This document shows positions 2,450-53,604 of a stretch of DNA of 64,000 nucleotides, piece after piece (within the stretch, counting starts at the first letter, position 1; every line of letters starts with the position of its first letter). The stretch lies in assembly GCA_000004985.1 (NCBI GenBank), contig GG738848.1; one strand, given 5' to 3'. The translations under genes and the position numbers were made by a program. The stretch comes from Naegleria gruberi (lineage: Eukaryota). The notes under the pieces are model-generated. The model was not told the origin of the DNA and ran no database searches. It saw only the letters and a program-made list of their open reading frames with translations.

Positions 2450-5400
2450 TTATTGTCTCTTGTATTTGATGATATATTCAGGATAGCACTGATATCTATC
2501 ATAGACAATCAATTCTCTATATGAATTACTTGTAGTATTTGATTGGCCAATCACACTATCAAAGACTCTTCTATTCTTTCCAACAATTTCTGGAGGTCTT
2601 CTTTGATTGGTCATTCCTTGGGGTGTGAAATAGACTTGTCTTCCCAAAACAACTCTACACAGGAATATAGTATATTCCTTATTAAGGTCTGGAGTGCAAT
2701 ATTGGTCACTCTTTGAACAATACTCAGCAAAATAAACTCCAGCTCCAAATAAACCACCCAAACTTGCAACTCTTTCATCAAATCCATGTTCTGAAATGGT
2801 TGAAACAAATTCAGGTTTTGTTCCGTGCCATAAGTACTTTTCATTCATTCCACTATTCAATCCAACTGTTTTCATCCATTCGTAGGATTTGCTTGTTTTT
2901 GGCAATAGTTCTGTTTGAACTTGGATTGTCTTGATAGGATCTTGATAAGATGTCAAATGATTCATTCTTGATTTGTATGAAGTGAAAAGTGTTGCATTTT
3001 CAATTCTTGAAACACTTGAAACAATTAATTTGGAATAATTCATTTTCACTTGTTGATCTCTACCAGTTCCAAGTGTTGCAGAATTACATGAAACATTGAC
3101 AATATCTTGAATGGTATTTTTCAAATATTTTGTAACATCCACAATGTAAAATCTTTTAGAATAGGATGTGAATGTATTTCTCTTCCAATAACTTGGCAAG
3201 ACAATATTCAATTGTCTAGATTTGGATTCTTCCAATTCCTTTTCCATGTCTTGTAATTTCTTTTCCTTACTTTTCAATCTGCTAATTTGATTTGTAATTT
3301 CTTCTCTTTCCTTAACACTTTGATTGGTGAATTCCTTTGTTTTCTGTTCAAGTTTCTTGATTTCTTGTGTGAGATTGGATTTATCTTGTTTGAGATTGAA
3401 TTTAACTTGATTCAATTGTTTTTCATATTCCTTCAATTGTTTTGATTGATTTGAAATGGATTTGACTTGTTCTTGAACTTTGATTTCATCCAAGAGAGTA
3501 TCCTTCAAAAAGAATTCACAAACAAGAGCATCTGATGCAAATGGTCTGTCATTTGGATCATTAGTCATACATTGTTGAACTAGAGTATTCAATGATGAGT
3601 AAGTATTCAATTCTTGAGCAGTCATACAATTCTTGATGGTTTTTCCAAATGCAAACATATCTGATTTGAATGTTGCTGATTGACCATTCATTAATTCAGG
3701 TGATAGATAGTCATATGTTCCAGAAACAGAAGTTCTAGTGTACAAATTCATTGTTCTACTTTGAACATCCAAACTAACATCAAAATCTCCCAAAATAATT
3801 GGATATAGACCATTGTTACATTCTCCAACAAATATATTCTCAGGTTTGATATCACAATGAATGACACCTCTGGAATGAATATGTTGAATGGCAATTAATA
3901 CTTGTCTCCATGTTCTTTCCCAAAAAAGTACTTCTAATTTGGTGGATTTTCTTTGTTTTTCAAGAAATTCCTTCAAATTACCATTCGAATAATATGGCAT
4001 TACAATATAAACATTGTTGGTGGAATGGCTATTATCATTAGACATGTAAAATCCTTCAATTTCAATAATATTGTTATGTTTCAACTTTTTTGTAATCTTG
4101 AGTTCTTTTTGTAAACTTTCCAATTTTTTGTTATCCTTGATTGAATATTGTTTAATGATATGTTTCTTATCGTTAATATCAGTTCCAATAAACAAGTGAT
4201 GATTTCCATTCCAATCTTGAATTGGCTTAATTTCTTTGAATAAATCGGCTGACATTTCTTCAATATTCATTGTGGATGCAATACTTGATGACAGGATTGA
4301 CTCAACATTGAATCCAATAGTTTTCAATTGGAGGAACTTCAACTTGATTTCATTTGTCTGTTCAATACATTCCTTGAGTACTTTCTTTTTTTCTTGTAAG
4401 GTTGTTTCCTTTTCTTTAATTTCATCCTCAATTTGCATGGATTCAGTCTTGTTTGTAACATGTACTAATTCATCTCTCAATCCATCAATGTCAAGTTTAA
4501 TAATGGTCAATTCTCTTGTTACTCTTGCTTTCTTTCTTTGTAAAGCAGAATATTGTTCTGTCAATTGCTTGTAATCATTCATAATGTTTACAATATTTTG
4601 CAATTGTTCATGTTGTTCAATAATGAATGGAATGGTTTCTTGAATGAGCTTGTTTCCATTATTAAATTGATTTTGATAATCACAATAAATTTGATAAATT
4701 CCAATTTGAACTAGTTCAGGAAGCAAATTTTTAGTATTAGAAATTGCTTTTTGTAATTCCAATTCCTCCTTTGAAAGCATTTCCATTGCAATCTCTAAAT
4801 TATTTGCAATTCCATTCAAATTAACACTTGTGGCATTATTAATGGATGATGCAATATTTTGTAATTGAGTTGAAATATTTTGTAAAACATTTTTGGATTT
4901 TCCTTCATAATTTGAATCTGTAGTTGAACCATTTAAACTTTTAAGTGTTTTTTGAATTTTTTCAATTGTTAATTCCTTATTTAGGTTATCATTAGCATTG
5001 TAATATTGTAATTGATCTTGATTCAAGTAATTTTGAACAAATTCATCAAATATTTGTAATTTTTCATCTAATGCTTGAATATAGCTATTCAATTGAATTA
5101 AATAATTTTCTGAATTAATTCTTTCTACTATATTTGTAATATTTAACATGTCATTATTAATTAAAGCCACATGTTCAACATTTTCAATATCACACTTATT
5201 ATTCATCAATCTATCATTAATAGTTGAACAACATTCGGATAAAACTCCATTAATTTTCGAATAAACTTGTTGTAGCTCAGTATCAAATGATAATTGATCT
5301 GAAAGTGGAATTACCGAATTCAATTGAGAAGTTACTTGTTTTCTATATTGAGAAACTTTCTCATTCAATGAACACAACTCTGTGAAAACTTGAAATACTG

Positions 5401-6571
5401 AAAGGAAAGTTTGTTTCTTTTCCTTTTCAATTCTTTCCTGTTCAAGTCTTTCGTTTTCAATTCTTTCTTGTTCGAATCTTATTTGATCAGCACGTTCCTT
5501 TTCAAGTCTCTTCTTTTCCAACATTTCTTTTGTAATTCTTTCCTTTTCAATTCTTTCCTTTTCGAGTTTGTCGACTTCTTGTTTAATTATGGAAATTGAT
5601 TTTCCATTAATTTTTAAATTGTTATCAACAACGATATTTGGGGAAGCAAGTAGCAATTTGACAATTTCTAAATTTCCTTTTTGGCAAGCAATAAACAAAG
5701 GAGTGAACTATATATGGTAATATAACTAAATTAATAAATTAAATTTACTTACATTCTAATAAAAATTAGTAAAAAATTTAAATAATAATTGATTGCTTAC
5801 ATTCTATAATGATACATTGAGTATTGAAATATTTCAAATAAATTTTTACTTACATACTAAAATTAATTAATTAAAAAAAATTAATAAAAAATTTTTACTT
5901 ACTCGCTATTTAAATTTTAAATAAAATTAAAAAATAATTAAATACTCACATCCTAATAAACAATATTAAAAAATCAATTAAATTTTACTTACAAACTAAA
6001 TAATATTAACATGTAAATAATAAAATATTATTACTTACAAACTATTATTTTAAAAATTATAAATTTTAAAAATTAAAGCACTTACTCTCTAATAATTATT
6101 TAATACATTTAAAATTAAGTATATTAAGTAATACCTACTTCCTATATAAATATTAAATAAAAAATCGACCATGTAAAATACTTACATACTAAAAATGGAA
6201 TTAAATAAAAAAATAAAATTTTTAACTTACAGTCTATTAAAAATTAAATAAACATTTAAATATAAAACACTCACACCCTACCATCATTAATATATCCAAT
6301 ACATTCACTTCATAACTACTTACACACTAAAAATGTCAACTGTCAACACAATAAATCAAATACTCACACCCTTGTTCACATTAATTTCTGCATAATTCAA
6401 CAATAATTTAACAATTTCCACGCGTCCATTTTCACAAGCATTATACAACATTGTCTTTCCTATTTTTCCATTAGAATATTCATTGATATCTGCTTTTTTA
6501 AACCATTGTTTAAATTCCTTGACATTTCCTGTGGAGGCAGCATCAAGTGCGTTCTCAAAGTTTTTGGACAT
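2450..6571 (-). CDS. Ankyrin-repeat / coiled-coil / protein-kinase-like / tankyrase-like PARP catalytic domain protein. Exons 6571..6368 and 5707..2450, about 1153 aa.
   Basis: Exon 1 reads MSKNF...VEIVKLLLNYAEINVNKG. Exon 2 reads FTPLFIACQKGNLEIVKLLL..., and the junction completes a 33-aa ankyrin repeat. The kinase region has HCDIKPEN, DFD and SPE motifs but a degenerate glycine loop. The C-terminus is WHGTKPEF..GFDERVASLGGLFGAGVYFAEYCSKSDQYC...YRELIVYD...YPEYIIKYK, a PARP fold closest to tankyrase with the catalytic Glu retained. Confidence 0.75.
5708..6367 (-). repeat. Intronic tandem array of 13 units, each about 47 nt (43–54). On the minus strand every unit is AT-rich spacer, then TAG, three nucleotides, then GTAAGT or GTGAGT. 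This is a chain of mini-introns separated by 3-nt microexon-like triplets.
   Basis: Read directly on the plus strand as ACTTAC/ACTCAC + NNN + CTA at 5747, 5798, 5847, 5896, 5944, 5988, 6033, 6081, 6135, 6180, 6227, 6270 and 6319. The true exon-1 donor at 6363 has the same form. All 13 have exactly 3 nt between AG and GT. Confidence 0.8.
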
Positions 6572-19540: not shown

Positions 19541-19613
19541 GGGGTCTTGGCGCAGTCGGTAGCGCGTAGGTCTCATAATCCTAAGGTCGTGAGTTCGATC
19601 CTCACAGACCCCA
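19541..19613 (+). tRNA. tRNA-Met (elongator, CAU), inverted copy of the gene at 16226..16298.
   Basis: Same sequence as the 16226 gene. About 45 bp of 5' flank is also conserved in inverted orientation. Confidence 0.85.
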
Positions 19614-19937: not shown

Positions 19938-20009
19938 GGGACCATGGTCTAGTGGTATGATTTTTGCTTTGGGTGCGAGAGGCCGTGGGTTCGATTCCCA
20001 CTGGTCCCC
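19938..20009 (+). tRNA. tRNA-Pro (UGG).
   Basis: GGGACCA..TGGTCCC acceptor and anticodon loop CTTTGGGT. Matches the canonical eukaryotic tRNA-Pro. Confidence 0.85.
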
Positions 20010-20102: not shown

Positions 20103-20174
20103 TAGCAAATCTAGGTTTCGATCCTAGGACCTATGGGTTATGAGCCCATCGCGCTTCCGCTGCGCCAATTTGCT
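20103..20174 (-). tRNA. Initiator tRNA-Met (CAU).
   Basis: AGCAAAT..ATTTGCT acceptor, GGCGCAGCGGAAGCGC D-arm, GGGCTCATAACCC anticodon arm, and the initiator-type T-loop GATCGAAACC. Confidence 0.85.
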
Positions 20175-22290: not shown

Positions 22291-22371
22291 TGCAGAAGGT
22301 GGGATTTGAACCCACGAAGCTTGCGCAGTAGAACTTGAGTCTACCCCCTTTGACCACTCGGGAACCCCTGC
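22291..22371 (-). tRNA. tRNA-Leu (CAA), type II with a long variable arm.
   Basis: T-arm GTGGGTTCAAATCCCAC, anticodon stem-loop GTAGA-CTCAAGT-TCTAC, and an acceptor stem with two G-U pairs. Confidence 0.75.
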
Positions 22372-22955: not shown

Positions 22956-23384
22956 TTATCTGTATGACTTTTGGAAACGAGCTCTAGCCTTACGACCACC
23001 GAACTTCTTTGGTTCTCTTCTTCTTGGATCAGCAACGAGGAGGGATCTATCGAATTCCAACAAAGCTTGCTTGATTTCTCTCTTTTGAGCTTCATCAACA
23101 TACTTTTGATAGTAAGAGACGAGACCCTTGCAGATAGCTTGTCTGATAGCATAGACTTGAGAAACCTTACCACCACCTCTGGTTCTGATTCTGATGTCAA
23201 CACCCTTGAATTTATCCTTACCCAACAAGAGAACAGGTTCGAAAAGCTTGAATCTCAAGATTTCTGGTTGGATGTGTTCGAGTGGAGTACCGTTAACTTT
23301 GATGAGACCTTGACCCTTTCTACATTGGGCAACGGCAATAGCAGTCTTCTTCTTACCGAAGGTTTGAACGAGTTCAGCAGACAT
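22956..23384 (-). CDS. rps16: 40S ribosomal protein S16 (uS9).
   Basis: ...[27 protein letters not shown]...[46 protein letters not shown]...[24 protein letters not shown]. Confidence 0.9.
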
Positions 23385-23677: not shown

Positions 23678-25405
23678 TTAATAATTAAAATCAAAGGGAG
23701 GAACATCATCAAGATGATGACGAGGATTATCAGTCGAACAACAAATAATAGGAAGGAGAGCTTCAAATAGGCTTTCATCTTCATGCATCCAAGCTGGTAA
23801 TAACATTGAATCATCAACCTTCCTATCTTCCTCTTCTTCATCAAATAGGGAAATATTATGGTGTTTCAAGTAATCTTCAAACACCTGACAATCATCCAAA
23901 TGTTCATAAGGTTCCCAAGTCTCATCTGGATAACCCAACCATTGAATATGATACAAGTAGGATTTTCTAGATTGATCACTTCCCTTGAATACTTTTTCAT
24001 GGTCAACAATAACCTTGATGGTATATTCCTCTGTGGTTGGTTTGGGTTCATACTGTTGATATTCCTCTTCATCACTTTCCTCTTGTTTATCATCACCACA
24101 TTCATTGAAGAGGGCATAATTTCTCTTGATAGGTTTTCTCTTCTCTGTGAGGATTAAACTCTGGTCAAGGCAATCATCACCAAGCTTCTTCTTCATTCTC
24201 TGGCTTTGATAGTAGGGATGGTCAGCTTTGAAAGCATTGAGTGCTTGCCTTTGTCCCATTCCACAATAGACCTTGCTGTGTTTGAAATGTGAACGATGAG
24301 CAAAAAAGATGAAGGAAAATCTCTTCTGTTCATAATCATTGGAAGGCTCTTTGGATGATTGAACTGGGTTGTCTCCATCAGTGGGTTCTTGCTTTGGACA
24401 AGTATTGATAAGAGTTGGAGTATTATCATCAGCTTGAGGATTATTCAATGTTGGAGAAGAATTTTCACAAATTTTCACATCATCAACTTCAGTTTGGGAA
24501 GAATTGGCAAGTGGAAAACTTTGAGGACGAGTTGGAGAAACAGCATGACGATACTTGTTAGCTCTCAGCAAGACAACATCACCTGCTTGAATGTGGACAA
24601 GTGTTTTTGGAGTATGTTCATTCACTCGAATCAATTGAAGGGATCCACCTCCAAATTTTCCCATATAGAACATGGCAGAGATTCCCATATCATTTCTGTC
24701 ACGATGATTTGTCTTTGGACGATTGACTTTATCTGTAGACTTATATGAGCCTTGGAATTTCTCCTTGACTGATTCATTTCTTGTTGGAATCATGTTGAAA
24801 CATACAACTGGAGTTTGACCTCTTTCTGTCAATTTGGATAATTTAGCAAATAGTTTGGGATTTGCCAATTCCAAAATATGTTGAAAGGTATCATGTAAGA
24901 GAGCTTGTATCTGTTTCACTTTGGTATCAACTAGCTCAAATCGAAAGCTATCAGCACATTTGTATCCCATTGGCATATTCATTGTCCACCATCCAGAAAA
25001 GAAACTTCCCTTATCAATATCCTTTTCAGTAGCTAACCATTCACTCATCTCCCTACAAAGTTGAGTGCATTCTTCCAATAGACTTGGAGGCAATACTGAT
25101 TTCAACAAGGCCATTTCAACCATTCCTTCTTTTGTGACGATAATAGTATTTGAGGAGATTTCTTTTGGAATGGTATCATTTACACCATATACTGATAGAA
25201 TGGGTTCATTGGATTGAATATTATTTCCTTTAAGGAATTCCCATTCTTTTATCATTTTGTAAACTCTAGTTTTACCAGATTCATCTATGCTTTTCTCATT
25301 TTCCCAACACACTCTTGTTAAGGCTTGAGCTTTCAAAAATTGTTTCTTTCGTCTTCTGTGTTTGGGTTTCTTCTTGTCGTGCTGAGATACATGCAGTGGA
25401 CCCAT
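23678..25405 (-). CDS. AlkB-family 2OG-Fe(II) dioxygenase fused to a C-terminal chromodomain.
   Basis: HRDRNDMGISAMFYMGKFGGGSLQL...IQAGDVVLLRANKYRHAVSP...RFSFIFFAHR gives the HxD...H...RxS dioxygenase pattern. The C-terminus has YTIKVIVDHEKVFKGSDQSRKSYLYHIQWLGYPDETWEPYEHLDDCQVFEDYLK, a chromo fold. Confidence 0.65.
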   Translation of the reverse strand: MGPLHVSQHDKKKPKHRRRKKQFLKAQALTRVCWENEKSIDESGKTRVYKMIKEWEFLKGNNIQSNEPILSVYGVNDTIPKEISSNTIIVTKEGMVEMALLKSVLPPSLLEECTQLCREMSEWLATEKDIDKGSFFSGWWTMNMPMGYKCADSFRFELVDTKVKQIQALLHDTFQHILELANPKLFAKLSKLTERGQTPVVCFNMIPTRNESVKEKFQGSYKSTDKVNRPKTNHRDRNDMGISAMFYMGKFGGGSLQLIRVNEHTPKTLVHIQAGDVVLLRANKYRHAVSPTRPQSFPLANSSQTEVDDVKICENSSPTLNNPQADDNTPTLINTCPKQEPTDGDNPVQSSKEPSNDYEQKRFSFIFFAHRSHFKHSKVYCGMGQRQALNAFKADHPYYQSQRMKKKLGDDCLDQSLILTEKRKPIKRNYALFNECGDDKQEESDEEEYQQYEPKPTTEEYTIKVIVDHEKVFKGSDQSRKSYLYHIQWLGYPDETWEPYEHLDDCQVFEDYLKHHNISLFDEEEEDRKVDDSMLLPAWMHEDESLFEALLPIICCSTDNPRHHLDDVPPFDFNY

Positions 25406-25619: not shown

Positions 25620-26693
25620 TTATTGAACAGGAGTGGCAATATTTGTTGGATCCAATAAAGGAGCAGCACCAGGTATGGAGAAGAGTGGCTTGGCATAACT
25701 AAATGTAAGGAAGAAGAATAATGGGATTTGGAGAATTGCCACAATGAAAATGAAATAATTTCTTTTGGCTGTATTAGTATCCAACCTTAATCTCATACTA
25801 TTGTCTGAGGAGTGAACACTAGATCTTCTCAAAGATTTAATCATGAAAGTAACCATCATAATTCCAAGGATTAATAAAGAAGGATAATAGGCATAATTTC
25901 CAAATAATAATGACAATACTAGAGTGATGATAATGCCAATATACTTGTAGCCAGAGAATGCAGCAACATCAAGTACACCCAAGCTGCTTTGAACACCCAA
26001 GGCATAAAATCCAAATTTCACAATGGCAATTTCCAAAAGTGATGTTATAAATCCTTTCATTCCGATACTGTACAACAATTCAGGTTTAAATTCCTTGTGT
26101 GCTCCCATAATAAAACAAACCAATAATACATAGGTAATATATCCCATCAATGGAATATACAAATCAGGGTCACTTAAATGACGTTCTTGAGTTTGATTTT
26201 GGTTATTATTATTGTATTCATAGCTTGTATCAAACTTTTTAAATGGGAATAAAACAAGGAGTAATTTTCTGCTCACATAACTATTAGTAACATTAAAATA
26301 ACATTTAAGTCCATCAAACCATTGCCAATATCTACTAGTCACTTCATTAGTCTTTTCTCCTACACTTCCATATAATTGATTCACTCCCATGTTGATCATA
26401 AAATCAGCTGTTGGATTTTGAAAAAGATTAGCACCAGCTGATGTATTATTACCGAAAAATCCTCCAAATAAACCACCAAAACCTGGAGCATTCATTCCTT
26501 GATTATTCATCGAACCATCCATTGCTCCCGAAGAATTATCCATCATTTGTGGGGATGAAGCTCCTCCTATACTTCTCGAACTAAATCCAGAGTCAAAGAA
26601 ATCAAGAGATTGTTGTGGTGTTGGTGAGGTTGGATCGAAAGAGCTTGGAAAGCTTCCAACATCATCGAAAAGGGCACTTCTACGATCGTTCAT
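25620..26693 (-). CDS. YIF1-family (Yip1-interacting factor) Golgi membrane protein.
   Basis: YWQWFDGLKCYFNVTNSYVSRKLLLVLFPF plus multiple C-terminal transmembrane segments. The N-terminus is Gly/Phe-rich. Confidence 0.7.
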   Translation of the reverse strand: MNDRRSALFDDVGSFPSSFDPTSPTPQQSLDFFDSGFSSRSIGGASSPQMMDNSSGAMDGSMNNQGMNAPGFGGLFGGFFGNNTSAGANLFQNPTADFMINMGVNQLYGSVGEKTNEVTSRYWQWFDGLKCYFNVTNSYVSRKLLLVLFPFKKFDTSYEYNNNNQNQTQERHLSDPDLYIPLMGYITYVLLVCFIMGAHKEFKPELLYSIGMKGFITSLLEIAIVKFGFYALGVQSSLGVLDVAAFSGYKYIGIIITLVLSLLFGNYAYYPSLLILGIMMVTFMIKSLRRSSVHSSDNSMRLRLDTNTAKRNYFIFIVAILQIPLFFFLTFSYAKPLFSIPGAAPLLDPTNIATPVQ

Positions 26694-26875: not shown

Positions 26876-26948
26876 GCAGCGATAGATCAGTTGGTTAGAT
26901 CGTAAGCCTAACACGCTTAAGGTCGCGGGTTCAAGCCCCGCTCGCTGT
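26876..26948 (+). tRNA. tRNA-Val (AAC).
   Basis: D-arm GATCAGTTGGTTAGATC, anticodon loop CTAACAC, T-arm GCGGGTTCAAGCCCCGC. Confidence 0.8.
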
Positions 26949-27075
26949 ATCCTTTTACTATTAAATGACATCATTGATCTTTTTAGAGTGAGAAAAAGAC
27001 TTAGATGCTATAGATGTGAAATAAGATCCATGCCATCTTTTAAGAATTGAACCTTTTGAGGTACAAGGATATAAT

Positions 27076-53365: not shown

Positions 53366-53437
53366 AGCAAATTGGCGCAGCGGAAGCGCGATGGGCTCAT
53401 AACCCATAGGTCCTAGGATCGAAACCTAGATTTGCTA
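53366..53437 (+). tRNA. Initiator tRNA-Met (CAU), copy B.
   Basis: Identical to the 20103..20174 gene. Confidence 0.85.
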
Positions 53438-53532: not shown

Positions 53533-53604
53533 GGGGACCAGTGGGAATCGAACCCACGGCCTCTCGCACCCAAAGCGAGAATCATACCACTAGACCATGG
53601 TCCC
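53533..53604 (-). tRNA. tRNA-Pro (UGG), copy B.
   Basis: Canonical TCTCGCTTTGGGTGCGAGA anticodon arm. Copy A has two C-to-T changes that convert pairs to G•U in that stem. Confidence 0.85.

Follow-up and report, generated by a model that had tools for sequence, protein, structure and literature searches.

A probable TET/JBP-family dioxygenase joined to a chromodomain in Naegleria gruberi

A stretch of 64,000 nucleotides from the Naegleria gruberi genome (contig GG738848.1 of assembly GCA_000004985.1; the window in what follows) encodes on its minus strand, at 23678..25405, a protein of 575 residues that very probably combines a dioxygenase of the TET/JBP family with a bona fide chromodomain. 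We call it the TET-chromo protein. Its catalytic residues match those of NgTet1, the crystallised founding member of the Naegleria TET-like family, and its chromodomain carries the complete aromatic cage of readers of histone H3 methylated at lysine 9 (H3K9). Together, these features suggest a nuclear oxidase of 5-methylcytosine (5mC), or possibly of thymine, that is recruited to heterochromatin marked by trimethylation of H3K9 and of lysine 27 of the same histone (H3K9me3/H3K27me3), a reading to which we assign a probability of roughly 0.5–0.6. A preliminary description made from the DNA alone had recognised the open reading frame (ORF) and the joining of a dioxygenase to a chromodomain, with the chromatin targeting that this implies, and both are borne out here. 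It had placed the enzyme in the AlkB family, an assignment that we replace.

Family and active site of the catalytic domain

The nearest relative of the catalytic domain among proteins of known structure is NgTet1 (XP_002667965.1; PDB 4LT5, 5CG8 and 5CG9). With the single protein sequence as a phmmer query against all PDB sequences, NgTet1 was the sole significant relative outside the chromodomain matches (E=4.8e-8, residues 85-290). When alignment A2 served as a profile query, the PDB yielded none of TET2, CcTet, JBP and AlkB, and JBP gave no match in the PDB sequence searches; the link of the protein to TET2, CcTet and AlkB is therefore by fold comparison only. The preliminary description had itself named the absence of an AlkB profile hit as grounds against an AlkB assignment, and the Pfam AlkB profile, 2OG-FeII_Oxy_2, gave no match at E<=10 in a HMMER scan. 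Two generic dioxygenase profiles matched below threshold, 2OG-FeII_Oxy_3 (18.1 bits, below 27) and 2OG-Fe_Oxy_2 (13.3 bits). The Pfam Tet_JBP profile did not match this protein and did not match NgTet1 either, an enzyme that is crystallised and biochemically proven; the Naegleria clade thus lies beyond the range of this profile, which is uninformative here.

Fold comparison points in the same direction. An AlphaFold2 (AF2) model, built from a seven-sequence alignment and without templates, has a predicted local distance difference test (pLDDT) of 70-89 over the core of the double-stranded beta-helix (DSBH). Fold superposition of this model scored 22.9 on NgTet1 (242 residues, 3.0 Å; 3e-13), 16.5 on CcTet (3e-9) and 15.0 on human TET2 (8e-6), followed by FTO at 13.7 (about 1e-6), ALKBH3 at 13.2 and AlkB at 12.4 (about 1e-5). 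Among TET enzymes the order of nearness is thus NgTet1, CcTet and TET2, and the AlkB-family scores are no better than those of prolyl hydroxylases. By sequence alignment the iron ligands H234, D236 and H287 and the 2OG-binding R362 fall in the NgTet1 register, and in the model they lie on predicted strands or loops with pLDDT 57-84; AlkB is not the nearest structural neighbour.

The catalytic domain as a whole spans approximately residues 70-408 (24182..25198), including the C-terminal helices after the core. Its active-site residues were mapped onto NgTet1 numbering with alignment A3. The first motif, R229-x4-H234-x-D236-x2-D239 (24689..24721), lies in columns that are invariant in this alignment and provides the proximal metal ligands H234 and D236 together with D239. 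The strand of the distal metal histidine, N283-KYR-H287-A-V289 (24539..24559), is predicted at residues 285-289, and its N283, H287 and V289 are likewise invariant. The third motif, R362-FSFIF-F368-A-H370 (24296..24322), falls on a predicted strand at 361-368 with pLDDT 79. In this map, the NgTet1 iron triad of H229, D231 and H279 corresponds to H234, D236 and H287, the 2-oxoglutarate (2OG)-binding R289 to R362, the conserved upstream R224 to R229, the base-stacking F295 to F368, the base-contacting H297 to H370 and the conserved Q310 to Q385. The HxD…H…R signature on which the AlkB assignment had relied is therefore sound as the mark of an Fe(II)/2OG dioxygenase of the nucleic-acid-modifying kind, but not as the mark of the AlkB family. 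E. coli AlkB binds 2OG with an R-x5-R pair, R204/R210. No such pair follows R362, where position +6, that of the second arginine, is a phenylalanine and the sequence reads R-x5-FAH as in NgTet1.

The base pocket also appears to be of the conventional 5mC type. In NgTet1, D234 (N1387 in TET2) forms a hydrogen bond with N4 of 5mC and leaves no room for the N6-methyl group of N6-methyladenine (6mA), D234 and S238 together stabilise N4 of 5mC, and CcTet, which is active on 6mA, has a glycine at the D234 position (PMC11040006). The TET-chromo protein keeps the aspartate, as D239, which argues against 6mA, 3-methylcytosine (3mC) or 1-methyladenine (1mA) as its substrate; it also keeps the serine, as S243, in an ungapped +5 register in alignment A3. 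TET-type motifs and D239 together lead us to expect oxidation of the C5-methyl group of 5mC (or thymine) in place of the N-demethylation of 6mA, 3mC or 1mA that had been suggested. The roles of F295 and H297 at the base are described for NgTet1 (PMC4224472, PMC11040006), and the third of its base contacts is N147 (PMC4224472). The last of these aligns with M142, with N143 adjacent, and the position varies within the paralogue subgroup, being K in P0032 and H in P0004, two relatives described below. Since the segment that holds both residues, 138-154, has pLDDT <50, a shift of one residue that would pair N147 with N143 is possible. A further pocket residue, A212 of NgTet1, is replaced by C202. 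From the sequence, M142 and C202 may leave room for an altered base preference.

Chromodomain, inserts and gene integrity

The C-terminal module is a chromodomain of the HP1/CDY/SUV39 class at residues 461-514 (23864..24025). Pfam Chromo (PF00385) matches it with E=1.2e-6 and a score of 28.8 bits, above the gathering threshold of 25.1, and the match takes in positions 1-52 of the 53 in the profile. The preliminary description had read this fold into the last 55 residues; the fold stands, but the domain lies further upstream and is followed by an acidic tail of 61 residues. The best PDB matches are Clr4, MPP8, CDYL, CDY1, CDYL2 and HP1, all readers of H3K9 methylation, and structures of the maize ZMET2 chromodomain (4fsx and others) are also found among the matches. 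The aromatic cage is intact, with Y461, W489 and Y492 aligned to the cage positions of CDYL, Clr4 and MPP8, equivalent to Y24/W45/Y48 of HP1; the same columns are conserved in alignment A1, whose reference sequences were entered by hand. The TWEP motif is also present. In the AF2 model, strands at 462-468 and 484-490 and a helix at 505-515 are consistent with the chromo fold of a three-stranded sheet and a C-terminal helix, in a region where the alignment is shallow and pLDDT is <50.

Among proteins that match the chromodomain only, the best is P0002, a JGI/IMG metagenome protein of 544 residues in which an ADP-ribosyltransferase exoenzyme-like domain (PF03496, E=4e-7) precedes six tandem chromodomains (Pfam Chromo E=9e-55).

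Other parts of the protein are of low complexity or biased composition. A basic cluster near the N-terminus, KKKPKHRRRKK at residues 11-21 (25343..25375), is seen directly in the sequence, and its resemblance to a classical nuclear localisation signal suggests nuclear import. An acidic linker at residues 409-455 (24041..24181), with pLDDT <50 and no Pfam family match, connects the catalytic domain to the chromodomain, and the C-terminal acidic tail at residues 515-575 (23681..23863) similarly has pLDDT <50 and no family match. A search of PHROGs returned no match for the protein.

Two inserts interrupt the catalytic domain. The shorter one, of 16 residues, lies just before HxD at residues 211-226 (SVKEKFQGSYKSTDKV; 24728..24775), is specific to this paralogue, falls in a gap of all relatives in alignments A2 and A3 and has pLDDT <50. 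The longer one comprises 72 residues rich in Ser, Pro, Asn and Asp (residues 290-361; 24323..24538). It stands between the distal-His and 2OG-Arg strands, where relatives have a nine-residue hairpin turn, and its lack of a counterpart in all relatives found (A2, A3) agrees with the earlier remark that a Ser/Pro/Asn-rich insert here is unusual. With this insert the motif spacing becomes R-x4-H-x-D-x12-G-x26-D-x10-H-x-V-x72-R-x5-F-A; the published NgTet consensus reportedly sets an upper limit of 72 residues on the stretch from H-x-V to R, exactly the length seen here. Low pLDDT, which is <50 for residues 297-356 of the longer insert, is consistent with disorder of both inserts. The DSBH insert of TET2 sits before the distal histidine. 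In animal TETs this insert is of low complexity, is disordered and carries post-translational modifications, and its deletion raises the activity of TET2 (PMC6130217). The Naegleria insert is like it in kind and differs in position, coming after the distal histidine, and by this analogy it is probably a surface loop with a regulatory or interaction role.

We considered whether the 72-residue insert could be an in-frame intron and rejected this, as no donor of the GTAAGT/GTATGT type occurs among the 39 in-frame GT..AG candidates. The insert has the highest in-frame codon log-likelihood of the gene, 0.52, while the two alternative frames give -0.10 and -0.73. Its GC content at the three codon positions (GC1/GC2/GC3) is coding-like, at 0.53/0.44/0.19, and its overall GC content of 0.39 exceeds that of the intergenic DNA on either side (0.24-0.31). 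The codon signal, the GC pattern and the missing canonical donor thus indicate that the insert is coding sequence.

A perfect tandem duplication of 10 nucleotides occurs inside the insert at 24460-24479, as two copies of AATTTTCACA on the plus strand or of TGTGAAAATT on the coding strand, with weaker 14-nucleotide repeats close by. These repeats suggest that the insert grew in part through small duplications.

The gene itself appears complete. The ORF listing shows a single uninterrupted frame running from 25405 to 23678, an intron-less coding sequence of 575 codons plus stop, and a full-length comparison shows its translation to be 100% identical to XP_002682154.1 (EFC49410.1, NAEGRDRAFT_46005, UniProt D2V161), an annotated N. 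gruberi protein whose database label is only "predicted protein [Naegleria gruberi]". All peptides quoted in the preliminary description are present in it, namely HRD at 234-236, GGGSLQL, IQAGDVVLL, RHAVSP at 286-291, (K)RFSFIFF at 361-368 and YLYHIQWLGYPDETWEPYEHL around 482-502. Under a codon-usage model for which 21 further long ORFs of the window served as the training set, the in-frame log-likelihood is above zero in every segment of the gene and negative in the other two frames in almost every comparison.

Proposed function and alternative readings

In the mechanism that we propose, the catalytic domain would flip a modified base into the DSBH pocket, where iron would be held by H234, D236 and H287 and 2OG by R362, and where F368 would stack against the base and D239, S243 and H370 would recognise it. 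The C5-methyl group of the base would be oxidised, most likely taking 5mC to 5-hydroxymethylcytosine (5hmC), 5-formylcytosine and 5-carboxylcytosine, as NgTet1 does. The substrate of NgTet1 is double-stranded DNA, from which it flips out the base (PMC4224472). The helices after the DSBH core bind DNA in conventional TETs (PMC11040006), and the AF2 model retains these C-terminal helices. The chromodomain, with its complete cage, would tether the enzyme to nucleosomes bearing trimethyl-lysine. Inferred in this mechanism are the substrate, the histone mark that is bound, the localisation to the nucleus and the function assigned to the loop.

The target would be transposon heterochromatin marked by H3K9me3/H3K27me3, where the sparse 5mC of N. 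gruberi concentrates. A single heterochromatic state is described in this organism, with H3K9me3 and H3K27me3 together and exclusively on transposable elements (bioRxiv 10.1101/2025.03.17.643675), and 5mC, at 0.28% genome-wide, is enriched in repeats, transposable elements and viral insertions (PMC12344493). Tethered to such regions, the enzyme would tie DNA methylation, through its oxidation and turnover at these sites, to a repressive histone mark. The intermediate 5mC levels of N. gruberi suggest turnover and have been linked by the authors to possible TET activity (PMC12344493). A more specific picture, in which the protein is either a histone-mark-guided eraser of DNA methylation on transposon heterochromatin or a JBP-like writer of 5-hydroxymethyluracil (5hmU), with the 72-residue loop as a regulatory switch, is tentative and falls short of even odds.

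Several observations weigh against recruitment of a 5mC oxidase to this heterochromatin. Analysis of N. gruberi DNA failed to detect 5hmC (PMC12344493), so that in vivo the oxidation of 5mC may be infrequent or short-lived, or some other reaction may predominate. One of the three base contacts of NgTet1, N147, aligns with a methionine, in a part of the model that is of low confidence. The alignment behind the AF2 model included NgTet1, and this may have biased the predicted fold towards NgTet1, even with templates left out. The chromodomain is modelled with low confidence, and its sequence does not reveal which ligand it prefers. Folding or catalysis could suffer from the 72 residues inserted between two strands of the core.

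The strongest alternative retains the fold and the targeting and changes the substrate to thymine, so that the enzyme would convert T to 5hmU in the manner of JBP and would mark heterochromatin without erasing 5mC. Kinetoplastids, which have JBP enzymes, are discobans too; NgTet1 also oxidises T; the authors who found no 5hmC proposed T or RNA as the substrate in vivo (PMC12344493); and the N147 contact varies across the subgroup. On the other hand, D239 and S243, the counterparts of the residues that bond with cytosine N4, are conserved, JBP-specific features were not found and JBP is absent from the matches of the PDB search. On balance we regard a thymine enzyme as a serious but unlikely alternative.

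It is less probable still that the protein is a catalytically impaired or regulatory paralogue, either a chromodomain-tethered binder of DNA or 5mC or a decaying, lineage-specific duplicate. Both inserts, one between core strands and one before HxD, would fit such a fate, as would the loss of N147, and the failure to find an orthologue outside N. gruberi among ~15 billion proteins suggests a gene that is young or evolving fast. Against decay, none of the residues that hold the metal or 2OG or make the main base contacts has been lost, and the reading frame is intact with a strong coding signal that includes the insert. Animal TETs, moreover, tolerate a far larger DSBH insert (PMC6130217).

An oxidase of 5-methylcytosine in RNA, with the chromodomain serving as an RNA-binding module or as a reader of methyl-lysine outside histones, seems very improbable. 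Some chromodomains do bind RNA, and RNA has been proposed as a target of Naegleria TET-like enzymes (PMC12344493), but the methyl-lysine cage is complete, the chromodomain is most similar to H3K9-methylation readers, and the closest characterised enzyme, NgTet1, works on double-stranded DNA, with C-terminal helices of the DNA-binding type kept here. Last, a chromatin-targeted N-demethylase of the AlkB type, acting on 6mA, 3mC or 1mA in DNA or RNA, shares the general cofactor signature and is hardly credible in view of the profile, fold and pocket results given above.

If recruitment of a 5mC oxidase to transposon heterochromatin is correct, the protein would provide a direct and testable link between repressive histone methylation and DNA methylation oxidation, the known targeting of TETs being through the DNA-reading CXXC domain. 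Its host is a discoban protist with DNMT1, with 5mC on transposons and viral insertions and with H3K9me3/H3K27me3 heterochromatin, and the protein thus bears on how early the methylation of histones and that of DNA became linked. A further question that it touches is why Naegleria, with several TET genes, has no detectable 5hmC; such recruitment could explain both the intermediate, apparently dynamic 5mC and the missing stable 5hmC. NgTet1 is already a sequencing reagent, and useful specificities may be found among paralogues in which the pocket has changed (N147 to M, A212 to C).

Locus, paralogues and known systems

The gene lies between those of ribosomal protein S16 (RPS16; 22956-23384) and a YIF1-family protein (25620-26693), beyond which come a mitochondrial carrier, a short-chain dehydrogenase, a glutathione S-transferase and other ordinary genes; the 64-kb window holds no second TET copy. 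Fungal TET/JBP copies are often carried by, or stand beside, DNA transposons (PMC12730594). We considered a mobile-element setting of this kind and rejected it on the strength of these neighbours; in contrast to the fungal copies, the TET-chromo gene stands between RPS16 and YIF1.

The window, which is N. gruberi nuclear DNA with a GC content of ~34%, contains 11 scattered transfer RNA (tRNA) genes over 16226-58125 (for example at 19541-19613, 19938-20009, 20103-20174, 22291-22371, 26876-26949, 53366-53437 and 53533-53604). Four of them are tRNA-Met(CAT) genes and two are tRNA-Pro(TGG) genes, each of the latter with a Met gene nearby, while tRNA-Leu(CAA) and tRNA-Val(AAC) flank the trio of RPS16, TET-chromo and YIF1, each within 1.5 kb of it. 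Elsewhere, a tandem array at 5419-5563 (15-nucleotide period, ~9.7 copies, 66% matches) lies inside a minus-strand ORF at 2450-5698 and probably encodes a pentapeptide repeat in a protein of 1082 residues.

Searches found few relatives. A homologue search returned only the TET-chromo protein itself, and a profile of four sequences added just NgTet1 and one NgTet1-like protein. In a HMMER scan of 1.84 billion cluster representatives, the catalytic part was matched by P0003/P0032, by P0004 and by the NgTet1-like cluster, the other matches being to the chromodomain only, and no other protein among these representatives matched both halves.

The closest paralogue is P0003/P0032, the N. gruberi protein XP_002676528.1 (NAEGRDRAFT_68183; 583 residues), whose TET core matches with E=2e-26 at 33% identity. 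It has the same RFS/RYS-x-x-FFAH-x-x-HF motif, and it differs in having a long N-terminal extension and neither of the two inserts. Its residues ~515-575 are collinear with the chromodomain described here and weakly similar to it (BLASTP E=4e-4; alignment A3); this segment has no Pfam Chromo match and keeps at most one of the three cage aromatics. Judged from this alignment, the tail may be a degenerate chromodomain, in which case the fusion would be older than the duplication. The second relative, P0004 (319 residues, E=3e-17), belongs to the RFSxxFF-x-H subgroup and has neither inserts nor chromodomain. Its gene lies at 137-1096 of a contig from ENA ERZ25068833 (L001), which also carries a DYW-deaminase gene at 4789-5034. 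DYW-type editing factors are a heterolobosean feature, and the contig may come from another heterolobosean.

A TET domain with a C-terminal histone-reader chromodomain is unlike every characterised TET/JBP enzyme. The gene belongs to the Naegleria TET-like family already catalogued in the genome, the founding member of which, NgTet1, has been crystallised and is used as a reagent. XP_002682154.1 is reportedly among eight NgTet paralogues listed in 2014, and chromodomain fusions in Naegleria TET/JBP proteins are reported to have been noted in the computational surveys of Iyer, Aravind and co-workers. The fusion has thus probably been noticed computationally while being experimentally uncharacterised. 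In open-access full texts, none of the names NAEGRDRAFT_46005, XP_002682154, D2V161 and NgTet2 occurs.

Compared with NgTet1, a bare catalytic domain of 321 residues to which it is ~22% identical, the TET-chromo protein has in addition an N-terminal basic extension, the inserts of 16 and 72 residues, the chromodomain and the acidic tail, and its pocket differs at N147 (M142/N143) and at A212 (C202). CcTet and CMD1 are, like NgTet1, bare catalytic domains and lack a C-terminal chromodomain; the fungal CcTet moreover has Gly331, at a position where the TET-chromo protein has Asp, and is bifunctional, acting on 6mA. Animal TETs require a Cys-rich, zinc-stabilised domain, and TET1 and TET3 are targeted by an N-terminal CXXC zinc finger that reads DNA, whereas targeting here would fall to a C-terminal chromodomain that reads histones. 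E. coli AlkB and the ALKBH/FTO family act on nucleic-acid bases, as this protein is predicted to do, and have in common with it the DSBH fold and the HxD...H...R cofactor pattern.

Two systems offer the closest parallels in design. JBP1 and JBP2 of kinetoplastids are TET/JBP enzymes of another discoban lineage that are likewise fused to chromatin-targeting modules, a J-DNA-binding domain in JBP1 and an SNF2 ATPase in JBP2; they differ in acting on thymine, which they hydroxylate in the synthesis of base J, and in having no chromodomain, and their similarity to the TET-chromo protein went undetected in the PDB and representative searches. The plant chromomethylases CMT3 and ZMET2 similarly fuse a chromodomain that reads H3K9 methylation to an enzyme of cytosine-C5 methylation. 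In these the enzyme is a methyltransferase, a writer, with the chromodomain embedded in it and with a catalytic fold unrelated to that of the oxidiser or eraser considered here, so that the Naegleria protein, if it acts as we propose, would be a mirror image of the plant chromomethylase loop in a deep-branching eukaryote.

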